DNA of 64,000 bases from an uncultured Mycoplasmatota bacterium. Lineage in GTDB: Bacteria; Bacillota_I; Bacilli_A; RF39; UBA660. Shown one piece after another: positions 35,472 through 58,635 of this stretch (the first letter of the stretch is position 1; each line of letters begins with the position of its first letter). The stretch covers positions 23,107-87,106 of the forward strand of contig URPE01000003.1 of the NCBI GenBank assembly GCA_900549625.1, given 5' to 3'. The position numbers and the translations under genes are program-made. Below the pieces are notes generated by a model. That model was not told the DNA's origin and ran no database searches. It saw nothing but the letters and a program-made list of their open reading frames with translations.

Positions 35472-35484
35472 TTTACTATCACCC

Positions 35485-37407: not shown

Positions 37408-37420
37408 AAAGTAATTATTA

Positions 37421-40054: not shown

Positions 40055-40063
40055 TCAAACTAT

Positions 40064-40753: not shown

Positions 40754-40767
40754 AGGATGGTTAATTA

Positions 40768-41262: not shown

Positions 41263-41341
41263 ATCAATTATTGACAGTAATTGATTTTTTTATTAGAAAA
41301 AGCAGATAGTTTAAAAAATCTGCTTAATAATTATAGTATAT

Positions 41342-42238: not shown

Positions 42239-42245
42239 CTGTCTT

Positions 42246-43079
42246 TTATTTTATTTCAGCTTTTTTAAAAGAATAATAACCAATTATGTTAAATATAGCA
42301 CAATATGCAACACCTAATATAATACAACTAATAATATATGTATTTGTTGGACTATCAACCAATTTTATTAAAGCCGTTTGGATTTCATAATCATTAATCC
42401 AAGTAATATTTAACTTAAATAAATTAGTTACACTTATCATAATTATTTGAATTACAACAATTAATGGTATTGATATTGAATTAAATAGAGATACTTTTTT
42501 AAATACAAAAGCTAAACATACTAATAGACTAATTATACCATATAATAACGGTAATTGTATAATTGTTAATTTTGTAAATTCTAATAATGGTGTTGAAAAT
42601 GCTTTACCATTTATAATTAAATTTAAAAGATATGCACCATAATTATTAAATAAAATCAAAAATGTACTTAAACCTAATATTAGTAACAACTTAGAAAAAT
42701 AATATTCTTTTCTTGAAATTGCAGATGATATAGTATTTTTTATAGACTTAGTAGAAAAATCTGTTGCTAACACTATAACTGTTATTACTATAAAAAAATA
42801 GTATAAATTTGTATTTGTTCCTATTATTTCTTTATCTAATGCAAAAGCACCACTATTCTTTATTATTTTCCTATATTCTCCTAATGTTTTTGCATTATTT
42901 ACTTCTGTTGCCAATCCTACATCACTTGTATCTGAACCTGTGCCAAATGATAAACCTATAGTTCCAGCAGATATTCCAACTACACTTACCATTGTTAAAA
43001 TGATAATTATTGCTAAAACTATGTATATAGCTTTACCCTTTAAAATTCTATATAAATCAGATTTAATTATATTAATCAT
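42246..43079 (-). CDS. ABC-2-type transporter permease
   Basis: 277 aa with about 6 TMs, immediately downstream of the ABC ATPase. Confidence 0.65.
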   Translation of the reverse strand: MINIIKSDLYRILKGKAIYIVLAIIIILTMVSVVGISAGTIGLSFGTGSDTSDVGLATEVNNAKTLGEYRKIIKNSGAFALDKEIIGTNTNLYYFFIVITVIVLATDFSTKSIKNTISSAISRKEYYFSKLLLILGLSTFLILFNNYGAYLLNLIINGKAFSTPLLEFTKLTIIQLPLLYGIISLLVCLAFVFKKVSLFNSISIPLIVVIQIIMISVTNLFKLNITWINDYEIQTALIKLVDSPTNTYIISCIILGVAYCAIFNIIGYYSFKKAEIK

Positions 43080-43080
43080 A

Positions 43081-43995
43081 TTATTTTGCCTCCTTTATCA
43101 ATGACTTAAAGTAATCTTCTAGTGATATACCAGTTTCCTTAATTTGCTTAACATTTATATCATTTTTTACAAGAGTTCTATTAACCGTTTCAACATTTTT
43201 CAAATAATCATAAAGTCTTATTTCTTCTTTATCTACAACCTTATAATTAGTTGTTTTTAAATCTTTTTCCAAAGCAATAGATGCTTTTTCTACATCATCA
43301 GTATTAATTACAATACATTTTGAACACTCAATATCTAATTCTTCTTTAGTTAGTTCTTTAACAACTTTACCTTTTTCTATTATACAAAAACGAGTTGCTA
43401 ATAAGTATAATTCAGATAATATATGACTAGATATTAAAATAGTAATATTTCTTTCCTTATTTAATTTTTTGAATGTATCTCTTAAATCACTAATACCAAT
43501 TGGATCAAGTCCATTAATTGGTTCATCTAATATTATAAAATCTGGATTATCTAATATTGCAAATGCAATTCCTAATCTTTGTTTCATTCCAAGAGAAAAA
43601 TTTTTAAATTTTTTCTTCTTTGCATCTTCTAAGCCTACTAGTTTTAAAGATTCATTAATTTGCTCATAATTAGTAATACCTTTTTGAATTGCATAATATT
43701 TCAAATTATCATACGCACTTAAATTAGGAAAAAATGCAGGATTTTCAATTAATGATCCTATTCTTTTTTTGGTTTCAGTTAGATCATTATCATTATGATT
43801 AAACAATGTAAATCCACCACTTGTTTTATTTGATAATGTTGTAATTATTTTCATCAAAGTTGTTTTCCCTGCACCATTTCTACCAATCAAACCATATATA
43901 TCTCCTCTGTCAATTTCAATATTGATTTTATCAAGAGCAACAAAATCTTTATATTTTTTAGTTAAATTGTTAGTTTTTAAAATTATTTCTTTCAT
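43081..43995 (-). CDS. ABC transporter ATP-binding protein
   Basis: Walker A (GRNGAGKTT), signature (LSLGMKQRLG) and Walker B (IILDEP). The ATG at 43995 has a GGAGGAA RBS. Confidence 0.85.
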   Translation of the reverse strand: MKEIILKTNNLTKKYKDFVALDKINIEIDRGDIYGLIGRNGAGKTTLMKIITTLSNKTSGGFTLFNHNDNDLTETKKRIGSLIENPAFFPNLSAYDNLKYYAIQKGITNYEQINESLKLVGLEDAKKKKFKNFSLGMKQRLGIAFAILDNPDFIILDEPINGLDPIGISDLRDTFKKLNKERNITILISSHILSELYLLATRFCIIEKGKVVKELTKEELDIECSKCIVINTDDVEKASIALEKDLKTTNYKVVDKEEIRLYDYLKNVETVNRTLVKNDINVKQIKETGISLEDYFKSLIKEAK

Positions 43996-44067
43996 TTTTA
44001 TTCCTCCATCAATTAAATTATACAAAAAAAGAGTTAAATAACTCTTAACACAATTCTTAAAAAAGTC

Positions 44068-44736
44068 TTAATTTTTTAATCTGTATCCAATACTCCAAAC
44101 ATTTTCTATGTATTCTTCATTTGGATTGCATTCTTTTAACTTATTTTTTATTTTACTAATATGCACATTTAAAGTATTATCATCAGCTGAATTTTCATCA
44201 TTCCAAATAGCATCAAAAATAGCACTTTTAGTTAGAGTCTGATTTTTATTTTCAATTATTAACTTTAGTAATTCGAATTCTTTTTTAGTAAATGATACAT
44301 TTTTACCATTGCACTTTACTGAAAAATTATTTTTATCTAATTCTATATCCTTAAATTTCAATATATTAGAAAAAGTATTATTATCTCTTAATTGAACTTT
44401 GATTCTAGCAATTAATTCATCATTATTAAAAGGCTTTGTTACATAATCGTTTGCACCCAATGAAAATAAATCTATTTTTTTATTAACATCTTCAATAGCA
44501 CTCATAACAATTACAGGAACATTATTTTTTTCTTTTAATTCTTTAATAATTTCTTCACCATTTTTGCCAGGTAACATTAAATCTAATAATATTAAATCAA
44601 CATTATCACTATGAACCAATAGTCCTTCTGTTCCAGAATACGCATTCTCTACATTAAAACCATTATTAGTTAACAATGCAGTAAGCATTTCATTTATATC
44701 TTTATCATCTTCTATTATTAATATTGTACTTTTCAT
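44068..44736 (-). CDS. OmpR-family response regulator
   Basis: Receiver domain (ILIIEDD...LILLDLMLPG...K) and a winged-helix C-terminus (FTKKEFELLKLI...GYRL). Confidence 0.85.
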   Translation of the reverse strand: MKSTILIIEDDKDINEMLTALLTNNGFNVENAYSGTEGLLVHSDNVDLILLDLMLPGKNGEEIIKELKEKNNVPVIVMSAIEDVNKKIDLFSLGANDYVTKPFNNDELIARIKVQLRDNNTFSNILKFKDIELDKNNFSVKCNGKNVSFTKKEFELLKLIIENKNQTLTKSAIFDAIWNDENSADDNTLNVHISKIKNKLKECNPNEEYIENVWSIGYRLKN

Positions 44737-44852
44737 TTAAATGCATCAACTCTTTCAACTACTATTTATTTAACTATTATTTCAAACACTTTAATTATAA
44801 CATAAAAAAGCAAATCTTATTATAGATCTGCTTGATAAATTGTAATTTATGA

Positions 44853-45437
44853 TTATTTATATAATCTAATAACTTGATATTCATAATGATCATTGGCATT
44901 TGAGATTCCTACTGAAATGCCTTTACCATTATTAGCTGTTTCTTTAGCAGAAGATTTTTCTTTGGCTTCTTTTAACAATTCATCAATTTCAGAATCAGTA
45001 ATTTCTTCATTGTTGGCTTTAATCAAAAGTTTTGTATACTTTATAGCAGTGGTTTCATCATACTTGTCATTATCCATATAAATAGCACTCATACCAAGAA
45101 TATCTTTTTCTTTATTTCCAGATGATTCAACTGGTTTTAGGTAGAATGCAACATCATCGGTTAGTGCAAACCAATATTTACCATTATCCACAACCATATA
45201 ATCATCACTAGCAGGTGTATTTAAACCACCATCCATTATTTCAGTATTAAATTTAGCAAGAATAGTATTTACAGTTTCTTTCTCAACCCATCCATATTTT
45301 TTATAAGTTTCTTCTAAATCATTTTTAGCATCTTCTAATTCTTTTTTAGAATCACTAACTGGATTGCTACATCCAGCAAGTCCTAAAGCCATAACTCCAC
45401 AAAGTAAAATCGCAAATAATTTCTTTTTCATTTTCAT
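44853..45437 (-). CDS. Lipoprotein
   Basis: Lipobox LGLAGC after a signal peptide. The start is ambiguous (ATG at 45437 or 45431) after GGAGGAG. Confidence 0.6.
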   Translation of the reverse strand: MKMKKKLFAILLCGVMALGLAGCSNPVSDSKKELEDAKNDLEETYKKYGWVEKETVNTILAKFNTEIMDGGLNTPASDDYMVVDNGKYWFALTDDVAFYLKPVESSGNKEKDILGMSAIYMDNDKYDETTAIKYTKLLIKANNEEITDSEIDELLKEAKEKSSAKETANNGKGISVGISNANDHYEYQVIRLYK

Positions 45438-45450
45438 TTCTCCTCCTATA

Positions 45451-46335
45451 TTACTCAAACATTATTGAGTCCATAATAAATTTACTAACTTCTAGCCATT
45501 CACTCATTTGTTCTTTTGTACAATTAAAATTAACTAATCTTAATTTATCATTAACAGAAAATGCAATAATATGATTATAGATTTCTGTATCTGATCCTTG
45601 TGTTGTAAATTTCATTTCACCAATTTTATGATTGTTTCTTTCCCAAAAATTTAATTTTACATCTTTTGAATAATTTTTATAAGTCGATTCCATTGTTTTG
45701 ACATATTCTTCTATCTGACTATTTTTCATTGTAACATCATTCATAACTAGTGCTAGATTAATTGTTGTTTTGTCATTTGTGTAAACAAGTGATGGTGCAT
45801 TTCCATTTGTATATTTAACATTAACAATTTCATCACTCATTATTTTAAATTCACTTGGAATCTTTATTTTAAATCCATCAAACATTTCATATTGTGTTTC
45901 AATGTTATTACCCTTATTGGTAGTAATGACTAATGTGTTTTCAATTTCACTTAAATTTTCAGTTTTTGTAATATTTGGTATTGTTATAATAGCCCAAATA
46001 ATTAAAATTGTTATGCTAATTATCAAACATACATTTAAAAACTTTGTTTTATCTTTGTATTCTGGTATTTTCTTTTCCTTTAAATAATATTGATACATAT
46101 TTTTAATATCTAAGTCATTCTTTATATCAAATACTGCAATAAGAAGTGCCATAATAATAATTAAAAGTGTATTAATGATTATTATATTAAATGGAATCAT
46201 ATTATTTATTATCAGTATAATATTTGGTATAACTATAATTGCTAATAACAATATAAGGATCATTTCATAAACATAGTAGTTCTTAAATGCCTTATTTTCT
46301 TTCTTCATCATTTTTTTAAATTCTTTTTTCTTCAT
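45451..46335 (-). CDS. Membrane protein
   Basis: 294 aa with three hydrophobic segments followed by a soluble C-terminal domain. Confidence 0.5.
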   Translation of the reverse strand: MKKKEFKKMMKKENKAFKNYYVYEMILILLLAIIVIPNIILIINNMIPFNIIIINTLLIIIMALLIAVFDIKNDLDIKNMYQYYLKEKKIPEYKDKTKFLNVCLIISITILIIWAIITIPNITKTENLSEIENTLVITTNKGNNIETQYEMFDGFKIKIPSEFKIMSDEIVNVKYTNGNAPSLVYTNDKTTINLALVMNDVTMKNSQIEEYVKTMESTYKNYSKDVKLNFWERNNHKIGEMKFTTQGSDTEIYNHIIAFSVNDKLRLVNFNCTKEQMSEWLEVSKFIMDSIMFE

Positions 46336-46374
46336 AATCTCTCCAATTTATTACTATAAATTCATCATTTACAA

Positions 46375-46728
46375 TTATTTTAGCATTTCATTTAATTCTT
46401 CTAGTGATAATTTTTTAATTAATATGTTATTATCGTTTTCATCAATGACATACTTCATAAGTTTTTTTATGGCCTCATAATAGTCTATATCATCTAAAAT
46501 TCCATTATTTGTTGTACTTACAAGCATTAACTTCCATTCATCAACTTCTATATTATCTGCTTTATACAATAGTTTTGGATTTTTAGGAAAAGAAGTTAAA
46601 GTATATTCCGTTAGTGCAAATGCACCAAATGGCTTACCATCTTTGCCATTATAAAAATTTGGATTCCCTACATAAGCATTTTCCCAATCATTATTTTCTT
46701 TCCTCTTAAATTTATCAAATAATCCCAT
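46375..46728 (-). CDS. Hypothetical small protein
   Basis: 117-aa ORF. Its 5' leader shares 23 nt with the leader of 46753-47214. Confidence 0.45.
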   Translation of the reverse strand: MGLFDKFKRKENNDWENAYVGNPNFYNGKDGKPFGAFALTEYTLTSFPKNPKLLYKADNIEVDEWKLMLVSTTNNGILDDIDYYEAIKKLMKYVIDENDNNILIKKLSLEELNEMLK

Positions 46729-46752
46729 AATTTAATACTCCTTTACAAATTA

Positions 46753-47214
46753 CTATTTATAAATTTCAATAAATTTATTCAAGTTTTCTTGATGATAATT
46801 TGCACCTTTAATCTTTTTAGCACAGTTCATTACATATTTTGTGCCATCATTTAGAATAATGGTAATTCTTTTATATATAAAATCTTCATTTTTAATTTTT
46901 ATTTTTTTAATCTCTTCTGGCTTTATATCAATATATCCATTAATATCAAGTTGCATAACTCTATGGTCATCAAGTATAACGGGGATTAGACAAATTTCAT
47001 TTTCATTCTTATTAACAAAATATCCACTTATATTATTTTTTTGTTTAGCCACCTCTATTAGTCCTCCAACTGCTCCAAGAGCTATTGGTAATGCTGATTG
47101 AGGTTTGAAGGTGCCAAAGCAATAATTATATTCATTTCCAAAGCGATTGATTCTTTTAAATAATTTTTCTACATTTTCAAGCAACATATACTTTTCATTA
47201 TTGTATTCTTCCAT
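46753..47214 (-). CDS. Hypothetical small protein
   Basis: 153-aa ORF downstream of the conserved promoter block at 47236-47277. Confidence 0.45.
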   Translation of the reverse strand: MEEYNNEKYMLLENVEKLFKRINRFGNEYNYCFGTFKPQSALPIALGAVGGLIEVAKQKNNISGYFVNKNENEICLIPVILDDHRVMQLDINGYIDIKPEEIKKIKIKNEDFIYKRITIILNDGTKYVMNCAKKIKGANYHQENLNKFIEIYK

Positions 47215-47235
47215 ATTTTGATGCTCCTTTACAAA

Positions 47236-47277
47236 TTACTATTTATCTGTTTATATTATAACATTTATTTTTTTATT
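47236..47277 (-). promoter_or_regulatory. Conserved promoter/leader block, copy 1
   Basis: Minus strand contains TGTTATAAT (extended -10). About 42 nt are nearly identical to 49110-49153. Confidence 0.45.
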
Positions 47278-47422
47278 AATCATCAGATTCATTAAAACTA
47301 ATAAAAAAGAAGAAATTATTAATAAATCCTTCTAAACAATATTATTGCATATACATTGATTATTAATTTTTTCAACATTTAATAACTAAAAAAATTAATA
47401 AGTTTAGGAGGCAATGCTTTTA

Positions 47423-47929
47423 CTACTCATTTTTATCTTCTTCTAAACCATCATGATATTTAATACAGTAATTAATTGCTACTAGTCTTAAAGCAATCCA
47501 AACTAAAGAATCATATAATTGATTATCACTAATATTTGAAGATAAACAATAATTTTTTATATAAGAAATATTTATTGGAATTTCTAATTTTCTTCCATTT
47601 CTTCTTAGTGCCTTGAACAATAAATCATTTGCAATATCATCAGATTCATTAATAATATCAGTATCATCATGTACTTTAATAAAATAATCTGTAATGTCAT
47701 CAACTTGATTAAAGACATTTCTAACTTTTTCCTCAGATTTTTCTTTTAACTCTATTAGTTGATTGTTTATTATTTCCTCAATTATTTTTTCTTTTTCACT
47801 TTCTTTTAAATCTCTAACTAATATAGTTAAATCATCTAAATTATATTCTTGTATTTCTATAATTTGGCTTAAACTCGATACCATTTTTCTTGTAATTCTA
47901 TTTACATAATCATTGTTTTCGTTTTTCAT
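47423..47929 (-). CDS. Hypothetical protein
   Basis: 168-aa ORF. No motif recognised. Confidence 0.45.
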   Translation of the reverse strand: MKNENNDYVNRITRKMVSSLSQIIEIQEYNLDDLTILVRDLKESEKEKIIEEIINNQLIELKEKSEEKVRNVFNQVDDITDYFIKVHDDTDIINESDDIANDLLFKALRRNGRKLEIPINISYIKNYCLSSNISDNQLYDSLVWIALRLVAINYCIKYHDGLEEDKNE

Positions 47930-48054
47930 ATACTATAACTCCCTTTCAATAACCCCTAAACTTATCATAATTAATTATACCATAAATTATTCATAGTGTC
48001 GTACTTTCGTGAATATTTGCCCATTCAATGGGAAAATTATTATAGGTGATATGT

Positions 48055-48507
48055 ATGATAGATAATAATTTAAAATGGTGTCGTGAGGAATTAGAAATGA
48101 CACAAGAAGAATTAGGTATAATATTAGGTGCTAGTAAACAAACCATTTCAAATTGGGAAACAGGTTATACACCAATTCCATTAAATAAATTAGTGAGATT
48201 TGTTAATTTATATGACTACTCATTGGATTTTTTAGTTGGTTTTACTAGAAATAATACTAAATATAATAAATTGATTAAATTAGATAAAAAATTAATAGGC
48301 AAAAATCTAAAGTTATTAAGAGAAAAATTAAATCTAACTCAACAAGAATTATCAGACAGATGTAATTTATATCAATCAACATATAATCATTATGAAAATG
48401 GTTACAGTTTAATAAAAATAATGCCTGCCTATTCGATATGTAAAACATACAATGTTTCTATGGACTGGTTAGTTGGTAGAACTATTAACAAAAATATTGA
48501 AAAATAA
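48055..48507 (+). CDS. XRE-family regulator with two tandem HTH domains
   Basis: Two HTH_3-like units (QEELGIILGASKQTISNWETG and QQELSDRCNLYQSTYNHYENG). The ATG at 48055 follows an AGGTG RBS. Confidence 0.7.
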   Translation: MIDNNLKWCREELEMTQEELGIILGASKQTISNWETGYTPIPLNKLVRFVNLYDYSLDFLVGFTRNNTKYNKLIKLDKKLIGKNLKLLREKLNLTQQELSDRCNLYQSTYNHYENGYSLIKIMPAYSICKTYNVSMDWLVGRTINKNIEK

Positions 48508-48595
48508 AAAAGCGAGAGTATATTAATATAACATATTCTCGCTTTTATAATTATTTAACAAACAACATAATGATATACATTTAAATTATGACTAA

Positions 48596-49090
48596 TTAAG
48601 ATATTGGCTTATTCATTAAATTAACACATTTTCCCTGAATATCATCAATCATAAAAACAATATTAATAAGTTTTCTAATATCTTGGTTGAAAATTTCTAA
48701 ATTAATACTCTTATTAGAAATATCTTCTAAAAATTTTTGATAAACTTCATCCTCATCATATTTAATTGAATTATTTTCATAATGTTTTTTTAGTTCGTCA
48801 TAAATAATCTCAAGGTAAGCATCAGAATAAATATCAAATGAATATAAATAGGATTTTATTTTAGATTTATCAGTCAAAATATTATTTTTTATTTCATCAA
48901 CTTCGTTGCCTTTTGTTAAATCATCAATCCATGGACTAACTTCCTTATCCATAAAATCACAAAATGCTTTCATAAATTCTGGATCAATTTTATTTTCATT
49001 TTTTAAATATTCATTGGCAGCATTTTTTGAAGATACACTTTCTATTTTATTTATTAAGCAAAACATTTCATCAGCTAAATTTTTGTTCAT
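48596..49090 (-). CDS. Hypothetical protein
   Basis: 164-aa ORF downstream of the conserved promoter block at 49110-49153. Confidence 0.45.
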   Translation of the reverse strand: MNKNLADEMFCLINKIESVSSKNAANEYLKNENKIDPEFMKAFCDFMDKEVSPWIDDLTKGNEVDEIKNNILTDKSKIKSYLYSFDIYSDAYLEIIYDELKKHYENNSIKYDEDEVYQKFLEDISNKSINLEIFNQDIRKLINIVFMIDDIQGKCVNLMNKPIS

Positions 49091-49109
49091 AATTTCATCT
49101 CACTTTCAT

Positions 49110-49153
49110 ATTACTATTTATCTATTTAATATTATAACATTTATTCTTTTATT
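49110..49153 (-). promoter_or_regulatory. Conserved promoter/leader block, copy 2
   Basis: Minus strand contains TGTTATAAT. Near-identical to 47236-47277. Confidence 0.45.
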
Positions 49154-49182
49154 CATTAAGCCTAGGAAAAAAGAATGAATTA

Positions 49183-50208
49183 TTAGTAATCCATCCTAAA
49201 TGACACAACTGCATACCATTGACCATTTATTTCATAGACACTTGCTGCAATTGCCGTGTTTTGCTCTCTTAGCATTGTAGCATTATGTGATGGACTATTT
49301 TTCCAAGCCATAATAAAATCTCCACCAGCATCACCATGTCCAATTATTTCACCAAAACCATAACCAGCTCCATCATGAGAATAATAGTTAACTAACTCCT
49401 TTGATCTTCTATCTGCCTCTGCTTGTGCTTCTGTTGTTACTGGTAATTCAGAAAGTCCATTTGCTCTTCTATAAGCATTTATCTGACTTACATAAGTATT
49501 TGAAATATCCTTTCTATACCCAATTGAAGGAGAACTTTGCTGAGTTGAATTTGATTGGAATGATTTATTATAACTATTATTTGAACTATTATTATTACTA
49601 TTATTTTTGGTCGCTACAGTTTTTTCTTCTTCTTTTTCTTTCACTTTTAAAGTAAACTCTTTTGACGAAATATTATTACTTTCATCTTTAGCGACAATTT
49701 TTAATTTATATTCACCTACTTTTGATAAATCATATTCTCCATCTACTAGTAATGAAACATTTGATAGATCTTTTGCTTCAAAATAATCGGATAAATTTAA
49801 GCTCTCTGTATTTTTTTCTAATTCAATAACTTCTTTTGAGGAAATAAATTCAGGTGCTATAGTATCAACTACCTCAATAACAAATTTTTTCTCATCTATT
49901 TTATTCTTAATAGTAAGATTATATTTGCCTAATGGTACAATATTATCTTTTTCTTTAATAAATTTTCCATTTTCAATTTTTAATTTATCAGAAGTTATTT
50001 TATAATCTTTTATATTACTAATAGAATCGGTATTTTTCAAATAATAAGAAACATCCGAAGTTATATCATCACCCAATTCATATACAAATTTTTCTTGATT
50101 TAATTCAATTTTATTTTTTTCTTTTGTAATGATTACCAATACAAATACAAATATAACTATAATTATTACTATCAAAATTGGTATAAATATTTTTAATTTT
50201 TTCTTCAT
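49183..50208 (-). CDS. Membrane-anchored CAP/SCP (YkwD-like) domain protein with Ig-like (DUF5011-type) domains
   Basis: N-terminal TM. C-terminus has INAYRRANGLSEL...HDGAGYGFGEIIGHG...WKNSPSHNATML. The ATG at 50208 follows a GGAGGAG RBS. Confidence 0.7.
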   Translation of the reverse strand: MKKKLKIFIPILIVIIIVIFVFVLVIITKEKNKIELNQEKFVYELGDDITSDVSYYLKNTDSISNIKDYKITSDKLKIENGKFIKEKDNIVPLGKYNLTIKNKIDEKKFVIEVVDTIAPEFISSKEVIELEKNTESLNLSDYFEAKDLSNVSLLVDGEYDLSKVGEYKLKIVAKDESNNISSKEFTLKVKEKEEEKTVATKNNSNNNSSNNSYNKSFQSNSTQQSSPSIGYRKDISNTYVSQINAYRRANGLSELPVTTEAQAEADRRSKELVNYYSHDGAGYGFGEIIGHGDAGGDFIMAWKNSPSHNATMLREQNTAIAASVYEINGQWYAVVSFRMDY

Positions 50209-50266
50209 AAACTCCTCCAACTGCTATGTTATTAATGTGGTTGTATAACCACATTATAATATATTT

Positions 50267-50728
50267 TTAATCTAAGTAGAAATAATAAGTTTTATCATAA
50301 ATAAATTCCACTTGATTCGAATAAACAGCTAAATAGAAATATGCTCTATTTTTTTGTCTTCTAATTTGTCTTTCACTTATATTTATTTTTTTTGCTATTT
50401 CCTTGTCAGTGTATCCATAAAAACATTTTAATCTTAAAAACTCTGCGATTGTTTTGTCTATTTTTTGAATTTTCAAAACACTTTTTATATAATTAGCAAT
50501 TTGATCATCATGCCATGATAATACTTTTAATAATTTATCAGAAGCAGATGAACCAGTTGTTCCACTTGAGAATAACAAAATACTTGCCGAATTAAATGAA
50601 CTTGTATTTAATTGCCTTAATCTTTTTTCAACAAGTGGTTGATATAATTCACATACTTCTCTACCATTCATAGCTGTTTTTTCTATATCTATTTTTGATA
50701 TTATTTTACTATCAAAAATATCAAGCAT
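50267..50728 (-). CDS. Sigma-70 region-4-like HTH protein (small sigma/regulator of a mobile element)
   Basis: C-terminal segment YGYTDKEIAKKINISERQIRRQKNRAYFYL. Confidence 0.5.
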   Translation of the reverse strand: MLDIFDSKIISKIDIEKTAMNGREVCELYQPLVEKRLRQLNTSSFNSASILLFSSGTTGSSASDKLLKVLSWHDDQIANYIKSVLKIQKIDKTIAEFLRLKCFYGYTDKEIAKKINISERQIRRQKNRAYFYLAVYSNQVEFIYDKTYYFYLD

Positions 50729-50982
50729 TATTCAGATTCCACAGTATCTTCTACATTAGATTCTTTTTCAGTTATTTTGCGAACATTAACAGCTTTTTCA
50801 AGCTCTTCATCATAATCAAAAATAACTGCTTCATTTTCTTCTAAAGTTTTATATCCTTTCATTTGAATATCTGAAAAATGAACATACACATCATTTTTAA
50901 TTTCATCACATTGAATGAAACCATATCCCTTCTCGTTACTAAACCACTTAACATTTCCTCTCATATTTACTTTTTCTTGCAT
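50728..50982 (-). CDS. Cold-shock domain protein
   Basis: RNP1 (KGYGFI) and RNP2 (VYVHF) motifs, with an acidic C-terminal tail. Confidence 0.85.
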
Positions 50983-51611
50983 TTTCTATTATCTCCTTTT
51001 CCATTCTTATTTACTACTATATTTACTGCTGTTTCATTTACTGCTAAATCATATAGTCTATTAATCCTTTTTAATATATAATCAATAGATAATATTATTA
51101 CTGCAACTACTACCACTAAATAAAAACTTCTCATTAAACTACCAAGAATCATAAAATTATAATTCAATAAAGCACTACATGGTAAAAATAATATTGATTT
51201 AATTAAAGTATTTATTATATTTTTACAATTCAAATTATTTTTTTTACCATAATATACAACTAAAAACATCATAATAACAAAAGTAATTATATAAGTATTT
51301 AATACAAATTTTCTTAAATCAATTAATTTTATCAAATTTGTATTATTGTTCAAACAATTAAAATTATCAAATATTGAAAATATAGTGTTAGTTGATAAAT
51401 ATAAACAATATATAATTATTAAAAATATTAATACAACTTTTAAATATTTCATTATAATTGATAACTTATGGTAAAATTGCATTCTTTTGTTATTTCCTTC
51501 ATCTTTCCAATACTCTTCTGCACTACTATTAAATAAATCCTTATAAAACTGCTTTATCTTTTTAATTGTTTTTCCTCCTTCTAAATCCCATTGATATTGA
51601 TAAAGCATCAT
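50967..51611 (-). CDS. Polytopic membrane protein
   Basis: Four hydrophobic segments. The true start is probably internal (MQFYHK...), because the 5' end overlaps the toxin gene. Confidence 0.4.
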
Positions 51612-51903
51612 CTATTTTCCTCATAGTTTTATCATCAAATGATTTTACATAGTGTATTACTTGATCTTTTGAAATAGTTAAAATACATTCACACAAAGCC
51701 ATTGTTTCACATCCTAATATAACATGAACTGGTAAGTAAGTTTTTTTTATTTTTGATGTAAGGGGGATAACTATTAAAGTCGGAGAGAATTTATTACCAT
51801 CATCATTTTGAACAACTACGCAAGGTCTTTTTCCAGATTGAACATGTTTAGATTTATTATACAATTGAACAAAATAGACATCTCCTCTTTTGATTTTTTT
51901 CAT
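51562..51903 (-). CDS. MazF/PemK-family type II toxin (endoribonuclease)
   Basis: KRGDVYFVQL...GKRPCVVVQND...TLIVIPLTSK pattern, 113 aa. Confidence 0.75.
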   Translation of the reverse strand: MKKIKRGDVYFVQLYNKSKHVQSGKRPCVVVQNDDGNKFSPTLIVIPLTSKIKKTYLPVHVILGCETMALCECILTISKDQVIHYVKSFDDKTMRKIDDALSISMGFRRRKNN

Positions 51904-52166
51904 ATAAAATAACTTTTAACCACACATTCTATTTCCAAAATATAATAAGCATCTAATGGATATTTAACCTTTCTTCTCCTCTTTAAATATTTATTTTCGT
52001 AAACAATCTTTAAAACACATGGATAACCTTGCCTTTTTAAAATTTCAATAATTTTTTCCTTTCCAATCTTTTTTACTATCTCTCTTCCACAACAACAATT
52101 ACCAAATTTTCTTAGATGACGCAAAATCCAATCAGGGATTTCTGTATTTTCCTCTTGAAAATCCAT
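51900..52166 (-). CDS. Hypothetical protein, candidate cognate antitoxin by position
   Basis: 88-aa ORF with a 4-nt overlap with the toxin start. No MazE/AbrB or RHH motif recognised. Confidence 0.35.
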   Translation of the reverse strand: MDFQEENTEIPDWILRHLRKFGNCCCGREIVKKIGKEKIIEILKRQGYPCVLKIVYENKYLKRRRKVKYPLDAYYILEIECVVKSYFI

Positions 52167-52187
52167 GATAGTTCCCCTCTCAAATTT

Positions 52188-52379
52188 TTAGAATAATTTG
52201 ATTAAATCAAAATCAAATTCACTTCCTACTTCAAAAAATTTTACTTCATCATCTCCATCAAACAAATAATAAATAATATTATCAATTACTTTAATGATTG
52301 TGAGAAAATATCCGTGATTATCTGATAAGGTATTAAAAACTTTGTACCTATCTTTTTCCTTATATTCTAAATGAATCAT
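52188..52379 (-). CDS. Small hypothetical protein
   Basis: 63-aa ORF. RBS AAAGGG directly downstream of the palindrome at 52394-52411. Confidence 0.4.
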   Translation of the reverse strand: MIHLEYKEKDRYKVFNTLSDNHGYFLTIIKVIDNIIYYLFDGDDEVKFFEVGSEFDFDLIKLF

Positions 52380-52393
52380 CCCTTTCTTTCATC

Positions 52394-52411
52394 TGTCTAC
52401 AATAGTAGACA
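52394..52411. promoter_or_regulatory. 18-bp palindrome, copy 3
   Basis: Identical sequence, just upstream of the RBS of 52188-52379. Confidence 0.6.
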
Positions 52412-52502
52412 ATTAGGGTAAAAAAATAATTTCTTACTCCTATTTTAACAACTATTATTTACTATTTTATTAACAATCACCTCCAAACGAACTTCCAGAG
52501 GT

Positions 52503-52520
52503 TGTCTACTATTGTAGACA
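52503..52520. promoter_or_regulatory. 18-bp palindrome, copy 4 (centre TATT on the plus strand)
   Basis: TGTCTACTATTGTAGACA, located 91 nt from copy 3. Confidence 0.6.
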
Positions 52521-52587
52521 CCTTATGTTAAAATAATAACCTTTTATTTAAAAAAAGTCAAGACCTATAATAAATAATATTTGTTTC

Positions 52588-52618
52588 AAAGAAAACTGTA
52601 TAGAAACAATCTATACAG
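52588..52618 (-). terminator. Rho-independent terminator after 52631-52939
   Basis: Minus strand: CTGTATAG-ATTGTTT-CTATACAG followed by TTTTCTTT. Confidence 0.6.
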
Positions 52619-52630
52619 CCGATACCTTTT

Positions 52631-52939
52631 TCAGTTTTTTATTGTTGTTACACAATCACTTAGCGTTGTAATTGTTTTGTCCAATTTTGCCTCGTCTTCA
52701 ACTGAAATGATACCGAGAGTACCAATTAATTCTATTAATTGTTCATACTTTACTGCCAAAGAATTACATAATAGAAGTTCATTTATAGTTTTATTATAAT
52801 CTTCTTCTACTTTGCTTAATTTTTTTATAACATCTTTCAATACTTCTTTTGATATATTTTCTTCCTCATTAATACATCTATTTAATACTTCCAAAACTAC
52901 TTTTACTTCATTTACTGCTAATCTTTCTTCTTTAGTCAT
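52631..52939 (-). CDS. Hypothetical coiled-coil protein
   Basis: 102-aa ORF. No motif recognised. Confidence 0.45.
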   Translation of the reverse strand: MTKEERLAVNEVKVVLEVLNRCINEEENISKEVLKDVIKKLSKVEEDYNKTINELLLCNSLAVKYEQLIELIGTLGIISVEDEAKLDKTITTLSDCVTTIKN

Positions 52940-52942
52940 TTT

Positions 52943-53203
52943 CTAACTTTCCTTTCCAATTGGTACTTCTTCTTTTCGTGATGTTTTATCCTTCAAACTA
53001 TCTAAGCATTTTTCTAACACACGAATTGTAGATTCTTCGTCCAACTGAGTCGTTAATGCAATATCATTATTTTTAATAATAATTTTTATGCACCTAGTTT
53101 GACTTGAAGACTGCATTTTATACAAAATTTCACCTGCCTTTCTAATAGTCAGGATGAAAACATCACCCTTAGTCCTATTGCCATAAATACTCCTCCACTT
53201 CAT
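52943..53203 (-). CDS. Small hypothetical protein transcribed divergently from the XRE gene
   Basis: 86-aa ORF. No clear RBS at the first ATG, so the start is uncertain. Confidence 0.35.
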   Translation of the reverse strand: MKWRSIYGNRTKGDVFILTIRKAGEILYKMQSSSQTRCIKIIIKNNDIALTTQLDEESTIRVLEKCLDSLKDKTSRKEEVPIGKES

Positions 53204-53261
53204 TTACTGCAAATATAGCTTTCTGCTATACATAAGATATATTATCAAAAAAAATTCCACT

Positions 53262-53279
53262 TGTCTACTATTGTAGTCT
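53262..53279. promoter_or_regulatory. 18-bp palindrome, copy 5 (two mismatches in the right arm)
   Basis: TGTCTACTATTGTAGTCT, in the divergent intergenic region 53204-53375. Confidence 0.5.
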
Positions 53280-53304
53280 ATTTAAAATTTTGTCGTTTAA
53301 TTTT

Positions 53305-53322
53305 AGTACACAATAGTAGACA
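53305..53322. promoter_or_regulatory. Half-conserved palindrome, copy 6, overlapping the -35 of the XRE gene promoter
   Basis: AGTACACAATAGTAGACA. The right arm TAGACA (53317-22), a 17-nt spacer and TAAAAT (53340-45) form a plus-strand promoter for 53376-53774. Confidence 0.5.
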
Positions 53323-53375
53323 TTTTAAAAAAAAGATAGTAAAATGGTTATGAAGTCTTAAGAGAGGAAAATATT

Positions 53376-53774
53376 ATGAGTAATGAAGAAGCTTTAGCAT
53401 TAATAATCAAAAAATATTGTGTTGTTCATAATATCAGTTATTCAGAGTTTGCAAGAGAAACAGGAGTAAGTAGAGCTTATATCAATAGAATAATAAGCAA
53501 TAAATGTGGTAAATTTGGGATTTCATCAACTATAAAAGAATTGATTGCAAAAGGATTACATACCAGTATGCCACAATTAGAACAACAAATTGAACAATGC
53601 AAAAATAATAATGATGTAAAATTTGATGATGAAATTGCAAATACAATTTCAAGTATTGTTAATGAATTAAAAAAATATGATATAAATGATCTTGAAACTA
53701 TTCAAAGTATTATTTCTGAATCTAATTCTCAAAGATTAAAAATTATTTATAATCTTCTTAAAAATATGAAATGA
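53376..53774 (+). CDS. XRE-family HTH regulator (candidate master repressor of the element)
   Basis: HTH (ISYSEFARETGVSRAYINRIISN). Transcribed divergently from the minus-strand genes, with palindromes in its promoter. Confidence 0.7.
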   Translation: MSNEEALALIIKKYCVVHNISYSEFARETGVSRAYINRIISNKCGKFGISSTIKELIAKGLHTSMPQLEQQIEQCKNNNDVKFDDEIANTISSIVNELKKYDINDLETIQSIISESNSQRLKIIYNLLKNMK

Positions 53775-53792
53775 CATATTTTTTTTATTTGT

Positions 53793-54614
53793 TTAAATAT
53801 CCATTTCATAATCGTATTCATCTTCTATTTCTTGACTTACTTCATTTTTTTCTTTAAACCACCCTAATTCTTCATTCCATTCAATCTCATTATTTATAAG
53901 TTTATCAATATTATTTAAAATTGCAGATTTAAAATATCCAAATTTATTTTTAATAGGTTCATTATTTTCATCAATGAAATTATGACTAACTACCCTTGGT
54001 ATAATATAATGAGTTATTATTATCAAATCAGTTAATTCATACTTTTGAATTAATTCATTAAATAAATTATCATAATATACAATTTGTAAATCATCAATTT
54101 CAATATACTTTCTATTTATTAATTCATTTGTAAGGATGTTATGATTTTTAGGATTATAAAATTCGGAATCCAAATTTTTAAATTCATTTAAAATGGTTTT
54201 ATCGTCTTTATCTATTTGTTCGTTAGTTCTTTGTTCTTTAGTATTTATTTGGGTATCATTTTCTACTGGTTGATTATCCACAGGTGGATTTCCTACCTCT
54301 GGATTTTTTTCTTGTACTATTTCTACAGGTTGTTCATAAATATTGTATACATACTCAAAGTATCCCTTATTATTACGAACCTTATCAATAATTAAATATC
54401 TTTTTCGTTTTAATTCTTTCAATGTACTCTTAATAGCCGTTTCTTGTTCCTTACAAATCGCACACAATCCATTTAGAGAATAGTCCCAATCAGAAGGCAA
54501 TGATAACATAAAAGACAACAATCCTTTCGCTTTTAAGCTAAGATCTTTATCCCTTAAATGATAATTACTCATTATGGTGTAATTCTTCGTTTTTTCAACT
54601 TTAAATACTGCCAT
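53793..54614 (-). CDS. HTH / DnaD-like replication-initiator-type protein of mobile elements
   Basis: N-terminus (NYTIMSNYHLRDKDLSLKAKGLLSFMLSLPSDWDYSLNGL...KELKRKRYL) resembles winged-helix replication/replisome-organizer proteins of Firmicutes elements (recognised from memory). Confidence 0.5.
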   Translation of the reverse strand: MAVFKVEKTKNYTIMSNYHLRDKDLSLKAKGLLSFMLSLPSDWDYSLNGLCAICKEQETAIKSTLKELKRKRYLIIDKVRNNKGYFEYVYNIYEQPVEIVQEKNPEVGNPPVDNQPVENDTQINTKEQRTNEQIDKDDKTILNEFKNLDSEFYNPKNHNILTNELINRKYIEIDDLQIVYYDNLFNELIQKYELTDLIIITHYIIPRVVSHNFIDENNEPIKNKFGYFKSAILNNIDKLINNEIEWNEELGWFKEKNEVSQEIEDEYDYEMDI

Positions 54615-54641
54615 ATTATCATCCTTTCTATTTTATTGCAT

Positions 54642-54680
54642 AAAAAAACAAGCTAATAACTTATATCAACTTGTCTTTTC
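54642..54680 (-). terminator. Weak terminator-like hairpin after valS
   Basis: Minus strand: ACAAG, a 17-nt loop and CTTGT, followed by TTTTTTT. Only a 5-bp stem. Confidence 0.3.
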
Positions 54681-54688
54681 AAGCATTA

Positions 54689-57112
54689 TTAATTGTTTTC
54701 TTTTTCTTCTAAATTTAATTCAATATTGTTTATCTTATAATCATTATCTTGAACATTAAGAATTAAATTTTCAATAAATAAAGTTGCTTTAAAATCTTTT
54801 ATAGAACTATTGATTGCATCTTTTAATTCTGGATTAACACTTACATCTAAGTTTTTAATTGGTGTCTTTAATGATAAATTATTATTTGATTTTTCACCTC
54901 TAGCTTGGCTTATTATTTCAATCATTAAATCACCATTTTTAACTTCAGACTCAAAATTAAATTCTAATGGTTTAATTTTTGTTAAATGAATTGACTTTTC
55001 ATCATGATATAATTCTTGATAAATTTCTTCTGTAATAAATGGGAAGAAAATGCTAAAATCTTGTAACAACTTATAAAGAATAGTATAAACTGTTTTTTGA
55101 CCAGAATATCTAGGAATATCCCCAAATTCTTCAGGTCTATATAATCTATGTTTTACTATTTCAATATAATTATCACAGAAATTCCAGAAGAATTTTTCTA
55201 AATGGTTAAGAGCAAGTCCTACTTCATAATCATCAAGGTATTTAATAAATCCCTTTTCCATTTCTTGAAAACTTCCTAGTATCCACTTATCTATGTATTC
55301 ATAATCATTAAAGTCTTTATCTTCATAATCTTGTAAGTGCATTTCAATAAATTTAGATACATTCCAAATTTTATTTACTAATTTTCTACCTCTTTGTAAT
55401 GTTTCTTCACTAAATACAATGTCTGTTCCTAGTCTTCCAGATCCTGCCCAATAACGAATTACATCAGCAGAATATTGTCCTATTAAATCAAGTGGATCAA
55501 CCTTGCTATTACCTTTAGATTTGCTAATTTTTTCGCCTTTACTTGCCATAACAAATCCAGAAATCATTACATTATCCCAAGGTCTTTGACCAAAGTGATA
55601 GAAGCTTTTTACTATTGTATAGAAATCCCATGTTCTAATGATTTCAGAAGCATTAGTTCTTAAACTCATTGGCTTTAAAATATCTTCATAATTTTCTTTT
55701 TCACCATATCTCATATTAATTAAAGGTGTAACAGAAGATGTTGCCCATGTATCCATTACATCCGTTTCTGGATTAAATTCAGTACATCCACATTTATGGC
55801 ATTTATCAACTGGTGGTTTATCAGATAATGGATTTACAGGTAAATCTTCTTTTCTTGCAAATATTGGTTCACCACAATCTTTACAATACCATACTGGAAA
55901 TGGAACACCAAAATATCTTTGCCTTGAAATACACCAATCCCATGCAACATTATTTACCCATTCATCATATCTATTATGCATGTGATCTGGATGCCATTTA
56001 ATTTCATTACCAATCTTGATAAAATCATCTTTATGACTCATTATATCAATAAACCATTGGTTCATAACTGAATATTCAACTTCTTTACCACATCTTTCGT
56101 GTGTTTGAACTTCATGTTCTAATTCTTCAACCTTAACAACATATCCACCAGCTTGTAAGTCTTCAATAATTTGTTTTCTAGCATCTTTTATCTTCATACC
56201 ACCGTAATTTGGTACTGAATCTATTATTCTTCCATCTGCTGTGAAAATATATTTTAATGGTAAATTATATTTTTTCCACCATTCAATATCTGTTTGATCT
56301 CCGAATGTACAGCACATAACTACTCCTGTACCTTTATCAATAGCGACTTTTTCATCTGACATAATAGGTACTTCTACATCAATTACTGGTATATGTGCAG
56401 TCTTTCCAATTAGATGCTTATGTTTCTCATCATTTGGATTAACAAATATACATACAATTGCTGGAATCAATTCAGGTCTTGTTGTAGCAATTGTAAAAGT
56501 TTCTCCATCTGTTGTTGAGTAATTAATATAATTAAATGTTGTTTTTATCGTTTTAGTTTCAAGTTCAGCTTGTGCAATTGAAGTTAAACATTCATTACAC
56601 CAAAGTGCTGGACTTTCCTTATGATAACAATGTCCCTTATCAATTAAATCTAGGAATGATAACTGACTAACTTTAATTGTTGATGGACTAACTGTTTTAA
56701 AATGAATATTCCAATCTGTACTTACTCCCATTTTACTAAATAAGTTTTGAAAATCTGCTTCATATTTATCAGTAGTTTCATAACAAAGTTTAGAGAATGC
56801 CTCTCTTCCAATTTCAGCTGCTTTTTTACCTTGTTCCTTTTCAACTAATCTTTCACTAGGCAAACCATTATCATCAAATCCAAATGGGTAAAAAACATTA
56901 TATCCTCTTATTCTTTTATATCTAGCCATCATTTCAGTTTGTGAATATGAAAATATATGACCAATATGAATATTACCACTTACTGTTGGTGGTGGGGTGT
57001 CAATAGAATAAACCTCCCTTTGATCTGGTTTAAATTCATAAACCTTATTTTCTTTCCAATATTCAAGCCATTTTTGCTCTTTCTCTTGAGCATTATATTT
57101 TTTATCTAACAT
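54689..57112 (-). CDS. valS: Valine--tRNA ligase, complete, of the non-bacterial (archaeal/actinobacterial-like) sequence type
   Basis: 807 aa with HIGH motif (SGNIHIGH), GFDDNGLPSE, WCISRQRYFGVPFPVWY and KMSKS motif (KISKSKGN). RBS GAGGAGAG. Confidence 0.8.
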   Translation of the reverse strand: MLDKKYNAQEKEQKWLEYWKENKVYEFKPDQREVYSIDTPPPTVSGNIHIGHIFSYSQTEMMARYKRIRGYNVFYPFGFDDNGLPSERLVEKEQGKKAAEIGREAFSKLCYETTDKYEADFQNLFSKMGVSTDWNIHFKTVSPSTIKVSQLSFLDLIDKGHCYHKESPALWCNECLTSIAQAELETKTIKTTFNYINYSTTDGETFTIATTRPELIPAIVCIFVNPNDEKHKHLIGKTAHIPVIDVEVPIMSDEKVAIDKGTGVVMCCTFGDQTDIEWWKKYNLPLKYIFTADGRIIDSVPNYGGMKIKDARKQIIEDLQAGGYVVKVEELEHEVQTHERCGKEVEYSVMNQWFIDIMSHKDDFIKIGNEIKWHPDHMHNRYDEWVNNVAWDWCISRQRYFGVPFPVWYCKDCGEPIFARKEDLPVNPLSDKPPVDKCHKCGCTEFNPETDVMDTWATSSVTPLINMRYGEKENYEDILKPMSLRTNASEIIRTWDFYTIVKSFYHFGQRPWDNVMISGFVMASKGEKISKSKGNSKVDPLDLIGQYSADVIRYWAGSGRLGTDIVFSEETLQRGRKLVNKIWNVSKFIEMHLQDYEDKDFNDYEYIDKWILGSFQEMEKGFIKYLDDYEVGLALNHLEKFFWNFCDNYIEIVKHRLYRPEEFGDIPRYSGQKTVYTILYKLLQDFSIFFPFITEEIYQELYHDEKSIHLTKIKPLEFNFESEVKNGDLMIEIISQARGEKSNNNLSLKTPIKNLDVSVNPELKDAINSSIKDFKATLFIENLILNVQDNDYKINNIELNLEEKENN

Positions 57113-57140
57113 ATCTATCTCTCCTCTACTTTTTTAAATT

Positions 57141-58025
57141 TTAACAAAACATGTACCCTAATGAACCCTTTATTTTCAATACTTTGAAAGGATTTGTACT
57201 ATTGGGCGTATTCTTAACAACACCAGTTCCTTTTTCCATATCAGCATGTTCATCGGCTATAATAGGAATTAACTTATTCATAAATGGTAAAACAACACTT
57301 TTACCAATATATTTTTGGTAACGAGCATCGCTTTTATTTACCGCAACAGCCGTATCCCCAAAAAGAGTTTCTGGTCTAGTAGTAGCAACATCTAAGTATT
57401 CCTCACTATCACTTAATTTATATTTCAAATGATAAAAAGCACTTTCTTCAGTTTTATAAACTAGTTCTTCATTAGAAATAGCTGTTTTAGCTACTGGATC
57501 CCAATTAATAATTTTTTTACCACGATAAATAAGACCTTTATTATAATAATCAACAAATACTTTTTTAACAGCTTCTTGCATACCCTCATCAAGAGTAAAT
57601 CTTTCTTTAGAATAATCAAGAGCAATACCAAGTTTAGCCCATTGAGCTCTAATTAAATCGGCATGTTCATGTGTCCAGTTATAACATTCATTTAAAAATT
57701 CTTCTCTTCCTACTGTGTATTTATCTTTACCTTGTTCTTTTAGTCTTTTTACAACTTTAGCCTCAGTTGCAATCGCTGCATGATCCATACCTGGAAGCCA
57801 TAATGTATCAAAGCCTTCCATCTTTTTATAACGAATTATAATATCTTGAAGCGTTACATCAAGAGCATGACCTAAATGTAGTTTACCCGTAACATTAGGT
57901 GGTGGCAAAACAATACAGTAAGGTTTTTTATCACTTTCTTCATCACATTTAAAATAACCATTATCTACCCAATAAGCATACTTGTTTTCTTCTACATTTT
58001 CATGATTATATTTATTATCTAGCAT
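57141..58025 (-). pseudogene. valS: 5' remnant (~280 codons) of a bacterial-type valine--tRNA ligase gene
   Basis: [48 protein letters not shown] ... [16 protein letters not shown] ... GTGVVK. Similarity decays at about 57180-57190 and a stop follows at 57141. A full-length bacterial ValRS is about 880 aa. Confidence 0.75.
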
Positions 58026-58060: not shown

Positions 58061-58429
58061 TTATCTTCCGTTATGTTTACTCACTTGGTCATATACTCCA
58101 TCAATAATATCCATCATAGCAGCATAATCACTAGAATTTGCTACCCCTTGTAGTACATATGTAATTTCACCATCAACAATAAATTCTCTATAAACATTCA
58201 TAAGCATAGAATTATCATTAACAGCATTATCTCTAGTAAACTTTTCTAAATAACCAACTTGTTCATCAGTTAAACTAGATGGTAAATAAATATTATATTT
58301 ATTTTCTTTGTTAATTATTATACCAACACATTTTGCATCAGATTCAATTCCCAAAATACCTAATTCCCCTTTTGCTGCTAGTATTTCTCCATTTGGCGCA
58401 ACATACCATTTTTTCACTTCATTTTCCAT
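58061..58429 (-). CDS. Hypothetical protein between the T-box leader and the valS remnant
   Basis: The ATG at 58429 (MENEVKKWY...) has an AGAGGGA RBS. The longer ORF start at 58477 overlaps the T-box terminator. Confidence 0.45.
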   Translation of the reverse strand: MENEVKKWYVAPNGEILAAKGELGILGIESDAKCVGIIINKENKYNIYLPSSLTDEQVGYLEKFTRDNAVNDNSMLMNVYREFIVDGEITYVLQGVANSSDYAAMMDIIDGVYDQVSKHNGR

Positions 58430-58445: not shown

Positions 58446-58635
58446 TAAATAAAAAGATGATACCCAAAAGGAGTCATATAGACGGTACCATCCTTTAATT
58501 TAACTTTTTTTGATAACGCAGTATTCTGCTTTTAAACTCCCTTGCAACCTTCTAAAACTAAATTTATTTGTTTTCACCAACCACAAACTCTCTTTAAAAT
58601 TTATATCTTATACTCCTCAAGTTCAACGTTTATGA
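58446..58635 (-). promoter_or_regulatory. T-box riboswitch leader (candidate Val specifier)
   Basis: Minus strand has an AGAGAG box, a GGUGAAAAC distal element, and GAAGGUUGCAAGGGAG (candidate specifier GUU). The T-box sequence AAAGGAUGGUACCGUC has its 3' part (GAUGGUACC) pairing with GGUAUCAUC to form a terminator, followed by UUUUUAUUU. Confidence 0.65.

Follow-up and report, generated by a model that had tools for sequence, protein, structure and literature searches.

We examined a 64,000-nt stretch of contig URPE01000003.1 (positions 23,107 to 87,106; hereafter the window) from an uncultured Mycoplasmatota bacterium, in which the native valyl-tRNA synthetase (ValRS) gene, valS, is cut short beside a complete second ValRS gene, valS2, at the end of an integrative conjugative element (ICE). 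The source is a draft metagenome-assembled genome (MAG; GCA_900549625.1; 1.26 Mb in 45 contigs, 90% complete), which was searched for valS as a whole, and all genomes compared are metagenome-derived drafts; we denote them and their loci by handles beginning with G or L, and the 92.7-kb contig that bears the window is called C3. Read along the minus strand, the locus comprises a T-box leader, a small open reading frame (ORF), the 5′ stump of valS, and valS2 (Table 1). The arrangement very probably records the insertion of a ∼69.8-kb ICE into the essential, T-box-regulated valS, with the ICE bringing an archaeal-type spare valS of its own.

Table 1. Features of the valS locus and of the element inserted in it (window positions, or C3 positions where prefixed; a slash marks the crossover)
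Feature	Position	Strand	Remarks
Host T-box leader	58466..58635	minus	GUU (Val) specifier, T-box sequence AAGGAUGGUACCG, terminator; heads operon small ORF - valS
Host 122-aa ORF	58061..58429	minus	function unassigned; between T-box and valS stump
Host valS 5′ part (native)	57214..58025	minus	270 codons plus AA of a Lys codon; NF004349 profile 2-278
attL	57190..57230	minus	GGAACTGGTGTTGTTAA/GAATACGCCCAATAGTACAAATCC; probable crossover at AA dinucleotide 57214-57215
Element-encoded leader of valS2	57113..57213	minus	stump-ORF tail, 28-nt spacer, ribosome binding site GAGGAGAG; identical in host L081
valS2 (spare, complete ValRS)	54689..57112	minus	807 aa; NF009687 1001.5 bits; Pfam tRNA-synt_1 and Anticodon_1
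HTH_36-domain protein	53793..54614	minus	possible replication or regulatory protein; PF13730 28.7 bits; first backbone gene after valS2
ICE part within the window	1..57213	minus	remaining 12.6 kb before the window start, C3:10482-23106
Primase	13486-16482		Pfam/NCBIfam matches
Type IV coupling protein	10346-12289		PF02534 150.6 bits
VirB4 ATPase, CD1110 family	6125-8560		NF045971 conju_CD1110 675.3 bits, cut-off 325
CHAP hydrolase	4195-6123		Pfam/NCBIfam matches
MobA/VirD2 relaxase	C3:14241-15968		PF03432 94.7 bits
Sortase	within C3:10482-23106		
Large serine recombinase	C3:10543-12186		547 aa; PF00239 Resolvase, PF07508 Recombinase, PF13408 Zn_ribbon_recom; beside attR
valS 3′ part	C3:8758-10482	same as stump	573 codons, open; 69.8 kb from stump, directly after the large serine recombinase gene

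The stump ORF (57141-58025, minus strand) encodes 294 aa, and its match to the bacterial ValRS model NF004349 (PRK05729, cut-off 704 bits) stops at profile position 278 of 860, in agreement with a preliminary description of this DNA that had taken the ORF for only the 5′ part of a bacterial valS. The score of 416.9-418.4 bits falls below the cut-off because the stump is truncated. The break falls on the Lys codon in the conserved GTGVVK/ITPAHD motif, and the 23 codons between the junction and the stop at 57141 are encoded by the element. The T-box leader aligns with the full RF00230 model (1-219) at 74.1 bits (E 1e-15-1e-16), which is under the Rfam gathering score of 93 bits; a scan of the window at the gathering threshold misses it, and it surfaces only with an E-value threshold. 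With GUU as its specifier codon, together with GGAUGGUACCG and a U-tailed hairpin, the leader is a real T-box, as the preliminary description had proposed, even though the score lies below gathering, and homologous leaders precede valS or valS2 in relatives.

The valS2 gene starts 28 nt past the stump stop and is preceded by its own ribosome binding site (RBS). Its product matches NF009687 (PRK13208, cut-off 738 bits) at essentially full length, over profile positions 6-797 of 801, and carries the class-I signatures HIGH, as NIHIGH, and KMSKS, as KISKS, with an anticodon-binding domain (PF08264, 97.2 bits) and without a C-terminal coiled coil; its best solved relative is the Thermus thermophilus ValRS 1GAX. 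When both ValRS models were run on 14 control genomes, NF009687 exceeded its cut-off in 4 and the bacterial model in the other 10, from which we infer that the 4 are the archaea and on this basis call valS2 archaeal-type. The two ValRS ORFs are therefore assigned to different lineages by different models, as had been proposed for a complete 807-aa ValRS with its own RBS. The spare is the outermost gene at the attL end, ∼100 nt from the junction and in the same orientation as the host valS and T-box; it thus lies inside the mobile element rather than abutting it, as first described, the junction being at 57213-57215. No terminator-like site was found on the minus strand in the leader at 57113..57213, nor between the T-box and valS2. 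As the preliminary description had asked, we looked for any other valS in the 90%-complete assembly: valS2 is the sole intact one, and the remaining profile matches are the stump, the 3′ part, and the Ile, Leu, and Met paralogues. We note that valS2 and the bacterial valS of hosts share their first seven codons, MLDKKYN (window 57092-57112 and 58005-58025; L037:9450; L029-L033), and that these 21 nt, ATGTTAGATAAAAAATATAAT, are identical between the two types in several genomes. Such a shared 5′ end is unexpected for enzymes that are only ∼30% identical overall, and it may reflect earlier recombination at this point.

The missing 3′ part of valS lies where the preliminary description had predicted, outside the window at the far end of the element. 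A 581-aa stop-free frame (C3:8764-10491), which shares contig and strand with the stump match (C3:80286-81122), covers profile positions 263-858 and scores 651 bits on NF004349, under 704, so that neither encoded half passes the model at full length and the joined product alone does. When the flanks are fused in silico at their common GTTAA, a stop-free 844-aa ORF results that scores 1069 bits. Comparison with an element-free gene, an uninterrupted 844-aa allele (P0241) that occurs in 31 blocks of public assemblies, gives a gap-free alignment with 94% identity, and the host sequence is identical to this allele across the junction. The 90% cluster of the allele also includes 294-aa stumps and 550-aa 3′ parts.

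The attR site, on the valS sense strand, reads ATGATTTGTACCAATTGGTGTAGTTAA/AATAACACCTGCGCATGAT and has the core GTTAA in common with attL. The host/element junction falls on the AA of the Lys codon in GTTAAG: between G017 and G022, DNA identity rises from ∼78% in the host stump to 96-100% in the element and switches exactly at GTNAAG, and a Logan unitig (L070:1) starts exactly at TGTTAAG. The Lys codon is AAG in all attL read except G290 and L068 (AAA), whereas both attB sites read, those of G004 and G019, and the attR of 9 of 10 hosts have AAA, with AAG in L080; because of this difference, the crossover most plausibly took place at the AA dinucleotide. The element arm of attP resembles attB over ∼8 codons (NTPNSTNP vs ITPAHDPN), and because of this mimicry the similarity appears to run past the junction, so that the preliminary description put its end at 57180-57190, ∼25 nt too deep in the element. 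Around the core, the deduced attP has imperfect inverted repeats as arms, ATTTGTACCAATTGG and CCCAATAGTACAAAT, and long direct repeats are absent. We deduce a restored attB of ...GGTGTTGTTAA/AATAACACC and an attP circle junction of ...GGTGTAGTTAA/GAATACGCC, with TTGGTGTAGTTAAGAATACG at its centre.

The ∼69.8 kb between the valS halves encode a relaxase, a coupling protein, and a VirB4 ATPase, which is why we regard the element as an ICE, and the integrase gene sits at an element end with both attL and attR mapped. Surface proteins are also encoded between the halves. The recombinase gene ends ∼60 nt (61-62) from the crossover at attR; among NCBIfam models it has distant matches to CcrB, CcrC, and XisF, each below cut-off. 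Homologues of the HTH_36-domain protein lie beside the spare valS elsewhere, with 50-53% identity in G017, G022, L064, and L068 and 33% in the G422 element described below. A gene for a PemK/MazF-type toxin, preceded by one for an 88-aa partner (51562-52166, minus strand), occurs in the same order, at 51-54% identity, in the ICEs of G017 and G022.

Junctions of the ICE in other hosts were read at separate loci, the left one in L081, in L069, and in genomes retrieved with an attL pattern, and the right one at 10 places out of the 193 assembly blocks that index the identical recombinase protein. At these 10 places the terminal 7.7 kb of the ICE agree at 99.92-100% and invariably end ...GGTGTAGTTAA. 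What follows are valS 3′ parts that start AAT(A/T)AC... and are mutually only 55-72% identical as proteins, with different genes downstream, from which we count at least 8 host species; 9 of the 10 3′ parts are open and one contains a stop. Hadza gut metagenomes are among the sources of the ICE (L072, L074, L076). The ICE uses the same dinucleotide in valS in all of these species. At the left junction, the identical element end stands behind another host's T-box and stump in L081, and it recurs in L069. The attL pattern scan added 11 species-representative genomes with the same element arm, among them uncultured Bacilli from chicken and human, Candidatus Onthousia faecipullorum, Candidatus Ventrenecus avicola, and a water-deer rumen MAG. 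That 8 or more host species share an ICE of at least 99.9% identity points indirectly to transfer between hosts, and the element may be mobile at present. Five MAG contigs (L058, L060, L061, L062, L066) end within ∼55 nt past attL, which, like the start of the Logan unitig, is consistent with several left contexts, whether hosts or forms, of a single element within one sample. G037, with a stump and a 3′ part at contig ends, was considered as a further insertion and rejected, since the contig end reads through an intact attB (…VVKITMAHD) and reflects an assembly break.

A second element uses the same crossover. In G422, a 25-kb element with ParAB, in which the full conjugation set was not seen, encodes a recombinase 54% identical to that of the window ICE and has different attP arms. 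Outermost in this element, placed and oriented like valS2, stands a complete bacterial-type valS of 853 aa, with a 295-aa stump to one side and a 3′ part to the other. This spare is 80% identical to the restorable 847-aa valS of that host. The design in which the element cuts valS and brings a valS is thus conserved, and the lineage of the spare is not. In this spare (L038:2208-4769) the otherwise invariant motif GTGVVKITPAHD is changed to ATGIVKITPSHD, with 10 differences in the 42-nt attB region; the altered motif may shield the spare from self-targeting as an attB-immune allele.

Among 401 species surveyed from the family of the window host, 59, spread over 44 genera, have archaeal-type valS only, and at least 20 of these genera also have bacterial-type species. 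The replacement can be seen in place: G008, which has valS2, and G004, which has a bacterial valS, share the T-box leader, the upstream gene, and two downstream genes, and their DNA homology ends ∼64 nt into the ORF and returns ∼20 nt past the stop. Several loci carry damaged halves or scars. The stump has two in-frame stops in G290, and the valS 3′ part is broken in L080. In L063 an internally deleted stump, attL, a 96.5% identical valS2, 2.4 kb of cargo, a damaged attR, and an open 3′ part remain while the ICE body is gone; L010 has a valS2 cassette of the L063 type (95% DNA identity over 4.8 kb) followed by an attR scar and ∼10 nt of valS, so that the same cassette is found in a valS-inserted and in a scarred chromosomal context. 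In G052, what is left of bacterial valS is a relic of its final 231 codons, which lies after valS2 and ahead of radC-mreCD. The 21-nt identical starts of stump and spare form a direct repeat after insertion, and a clean deletion of the stump would therefore be possible. Taken together, these loci give good but not conclusive support to the view that ICE insertions feed in situ displacement of valS.

The cargo of L063 (3460-5790) and L010 (12422-14790) deserves separate mention. There valS2, 96-97% identical to that of the window, is followed by a fused SagB-dehydrogenase/YcaO (SagD-type) maturase of 714 aa and then by a short Cys-rich precursor ending ...CACVTGGGGCACDDGTSE. The cassette could be a peptide-toxin/immunity pairing with the synthetase, or a case of hitch-hiking.

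These observations suggest to us the following course of events. The large serine recombinase would integrate the ICE by recombining attP with attB at the AA in GTGVVK/ITPAHD, which would leave valS as a 5′ stump and a 3′ part that lacks a promoter. The spare would be expressed by read-through from the host valine T-box promoter, under tRNA-Val charging control; such read-through is expected from the co-orientation of valS2, its distance of ∼100 nt to the junction, its separate RBS, and the fact that no terminator-like site was detected in between. If ValRS activity dropped after insertion, uncharged tRNA-Val would accumulate and induce the spare, which presumably encodes an active enzyme. An invariant motif in an essential gene would offer an attB that many species possess and cannot change, and the spare would make insertion there viable. 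While the halves are intact, valS could be regained by precise excision; after their decay, the host would depend on the spare, and over time the bacterial-type valS would be displaced in situ by the archaeal type. The vehicle thus suggests one route by which essential genes may be swapped in place during evolution. Of the two hypotheses in the preliminary description, the one that put an element in valS, with a replacement valS at its extreme end and the 3′ part beyond the opposite end, holds wherever it could be tested.

Several points weigh against this account. Transcription of valS2 from the T-box promoter and excision are both deduced from sequence; promoter-like hexamers occur inside the stump at or below chance frequency, and an internal promoter could still be present there. 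The sole-valS status rests on a 90%-complete MAG, so a second valS could sit in the missing 10%. We identified no recombination directionality factor, a degenerate pattern for the attP form matched nothing in JGI metagenome contigs, and a valS 3′ part was not found in the assemblies of G017, G022, and G290, which could reflect loss or incompleteness.

Other explanations fit less of the evidence. An artefact of assembly or binning, with unrelated contigs joined, would be in keeping with the draft state of the source MAG and with the breaks of several MAG contigs at attL, and an assembly error at 57113-57190 had been raised as a possibility; both junctions, however, lie inside the single contig C3 and recur in independent ENA, NCBI, and Logan assemblies, and we give an artefact practically no credence. 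A stump and a full xenolog adjoining under one T-box could also mean an old, fixed xenologous displacement, with the stump a dead remnant and no active element. In this genome that reading is very improbable and in effect already refuted: the halves are intact and rejoin perfectly, the 3′ half abuts the recombinase that closes a complete ICE at its other end, and the ICE is at least 99.9% identical in many hosts. In situ displacement, the other hypothesis of the preliminary description, accordingly fails here and holds for sister species, where valS2 stands under the same T-box. The spare might instead be mainly a resistance or immunity cargo against a ValRS inhibitor, comparable to mupA/ileS2, with its position at the att site secondary. 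Biosynthetic clusters for synthetase inhibitors often include a resistant synthetase, and the valS2-SagB/YcaO arrangement of L063 and L010 resembles producer self-immunity clusters. No such cluster adjoins valS2 in the window ICE, however; the native valS is destroyed rather than kept, so a spare is needed regardless; the G422 element places a bacterial-type spare at the same spot; and the position and orientation of valS2, with no obvious promoter of its own, fit complementation. We know of no natural ValRS inhibitor of this kind, our literature searches not having been aimed at such inhibitors. The mupirocin-like resistance role mentioned in the preliminary description is without support in this genome: valS2 scores 182 and 210 bits on the MupA and MupB models NF000257 and NF000258 (cut-offs 1900), and it is not an extra copy beside an intact native gene, the native valS being split and no other found. 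Overall, a primary cargo function seems improbable.

The displacement in sister species calls for its own weighing. Archaeal-type valS could be old in the family, captured by the ICE and spread by homologous recombination through its conserved flanks, rather than left behind by decaying insertions. In genus g1, the five species with valS2 only group as a single host clade and show no att scar, and no scar was found downstream of valS2 in G126, G288, or G178 either; the T-box and the 21-nt 5′ end shared by both valS types would permit such allele exchange. Against this reading stand the decay intermediates in G290, L063, L010, and G052, the 76-96% identity of valS2 across genera compared with 60-70% for bacterial-type ValRS, and the patchy distribution of valS2 noted above, so that we regard flank-mediated spread as unlikely, if less so than the explanations discussed before it. 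ICE-borne and chromosomal valS2 copies are not told apart by their pairwise identities. Whether elements of this family drive recurrent in situ displacement across the gut Bacilli family, by taking valS hostage, placing a spare under the host T-box, and letting decay fix the foreign gene, is to our mind evenly balanced. If they do, this would account for the ∼15% of species, in at least 44 genera, with archaeal-type valS only and for the scrambled look of the bacterial-type valS phylogeny, and the same strategy may exist for other essential genes. The joined ValRS of the window host (G000) is nearer to that of G422 (another genus, 74%) than to those of its own genus (60-63%), which hints that bacterial-type valS may also be exchanged horizontally within the family.

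The usual view of mobile elements is that they keep away from essential genes or restore the few bases that they displace. Our searches of the literature, which did not extend to all journals, turned up neither an element that targets valS nor an ICE with a spare of the gene it disrupts, nor a large serine recombinase that inserts into an essential gene and brings a functional copy. The closest parallel in targeting is SXT/R391, which integrates into prfC, a gene that is dispensable, as a ΔprfC recipient has been used (PMC2791158). Like SXT, the valS ICE has its specific site within the coding sequence of a conserved gene for translation; SXT, however, uses a tyrosine recombinase and provides a new 5′ end and promoter that yield a hybrid gene, whereas the valS ICE hits an essential gene, leaves it broken, and supplies a complete gene of another lineage. 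According to Hochhut and Waldor, the SXT sequence at the junction reportedly keeps a functional gene product; at the valS locus the stump ORF ends after 23 unrelated codons, and repair of the SXT type does not take place.

Large serine recombinases are known from intragenic elements such as skin in sigK and SPβ in spsM of Bacillus subtilis, a Listeria phage in comK, and SCCmec with ccrAB. These share with the valS ICE a serine recombinase at the end, an intragenic attB, the lack of long direct repeats, and restoration of the gene upon excision; targets of the skin, SPβ, and comK type, in contrast, are non-essential and switched off while occupied, and none of these elements is known to carry a substitute gene. 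Islands and prophages in tRNA genes, tmRNA genes, or gene 3′ ends duplicate the displaced end. They likewise mend the gene into which they insert, but their repair is a short duplicated end within attP, and that of the valS elements is a separate 2.4-kb gene, xenologous or homologous. Mobile resistance synthetases (the IleRS2 enzymes MupA and MupB) likewise put a class-I synthetase on a mobile element, but there the native gene is intact and the inhibitor known, and valS2 encodes a ValRS. Introns occupy conserved sites of essential genes (PMC3073962). Together with inteins and homing endonucleases, group I and II introns follow the same logic of an invariant site in an indispensable gene with the damage neutralised, which they achieve by RNA or protein splicing and the valS ICE by gene substitution. 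Among the systems compared, none joins an essential target with a complete substitute gene.

Foreign synthetase genes at the exact place of the native gene are a common pattern in synthetase evolution, and in situ xenologous gene displacement is said to have been described by Omelchenko et al. in 2003. The end state in the sister species, a foreign valS at the native place in the same operon, has this pattern; here a vehicle and intermediates are visible as well, which makes the idea of in situ displacement testable. The integration strategy appears to be new in that the invariant motif of an indispensable gene is targeted and a whole replacement gene is paid as the price. Such an attachment site is one that hosts could not mutate away and that is present across genera, and decay of the halves would leave the host dependent on the element. 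The site is conserved in many Firmicutes-like genomes, and the recombinase could serve genome integration. Split or apparently pseudogenised essential genes in MAGs may flag elements of this kind rather than assembly errors.

Related recombinases may have other targets. Those of nine other genomes, 48-53% identical to that of the ICE, were considered as valS-targeting and rejected, as none lies beside valS. This sister clade of recombinases always adjoins a ∼150-aa gene starting MFKK.KKLSPKTMTHKF... (L049, L051, L054, L056, and L057, corresponding to G091, G515, G209, G092, and G384), which is truncated in two genomes and is probably another intragenic target of related elements.

T-box leaders normally directly precede the synthetase gene; here the 122-aa ORF intervenes, which has no match in Pfam or NCBIfam and is also called as a gene in the independent assembly L069. 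ORFs of 129-173 aa, compared by position only, occupy its place in G019, G017, G022, G016, G422, and L083, and other relatives carry an HD-domain gene or a dUTPase instead between T-box and valS. PD-(D/E)XK (Rpn-type) transposase-like genes lie immediately beside valS or valS2 in two relatives (L030:7100-7945 and L083:8571-9415), and the valS neighbourhood seems to be a hot spot of rearrangement.

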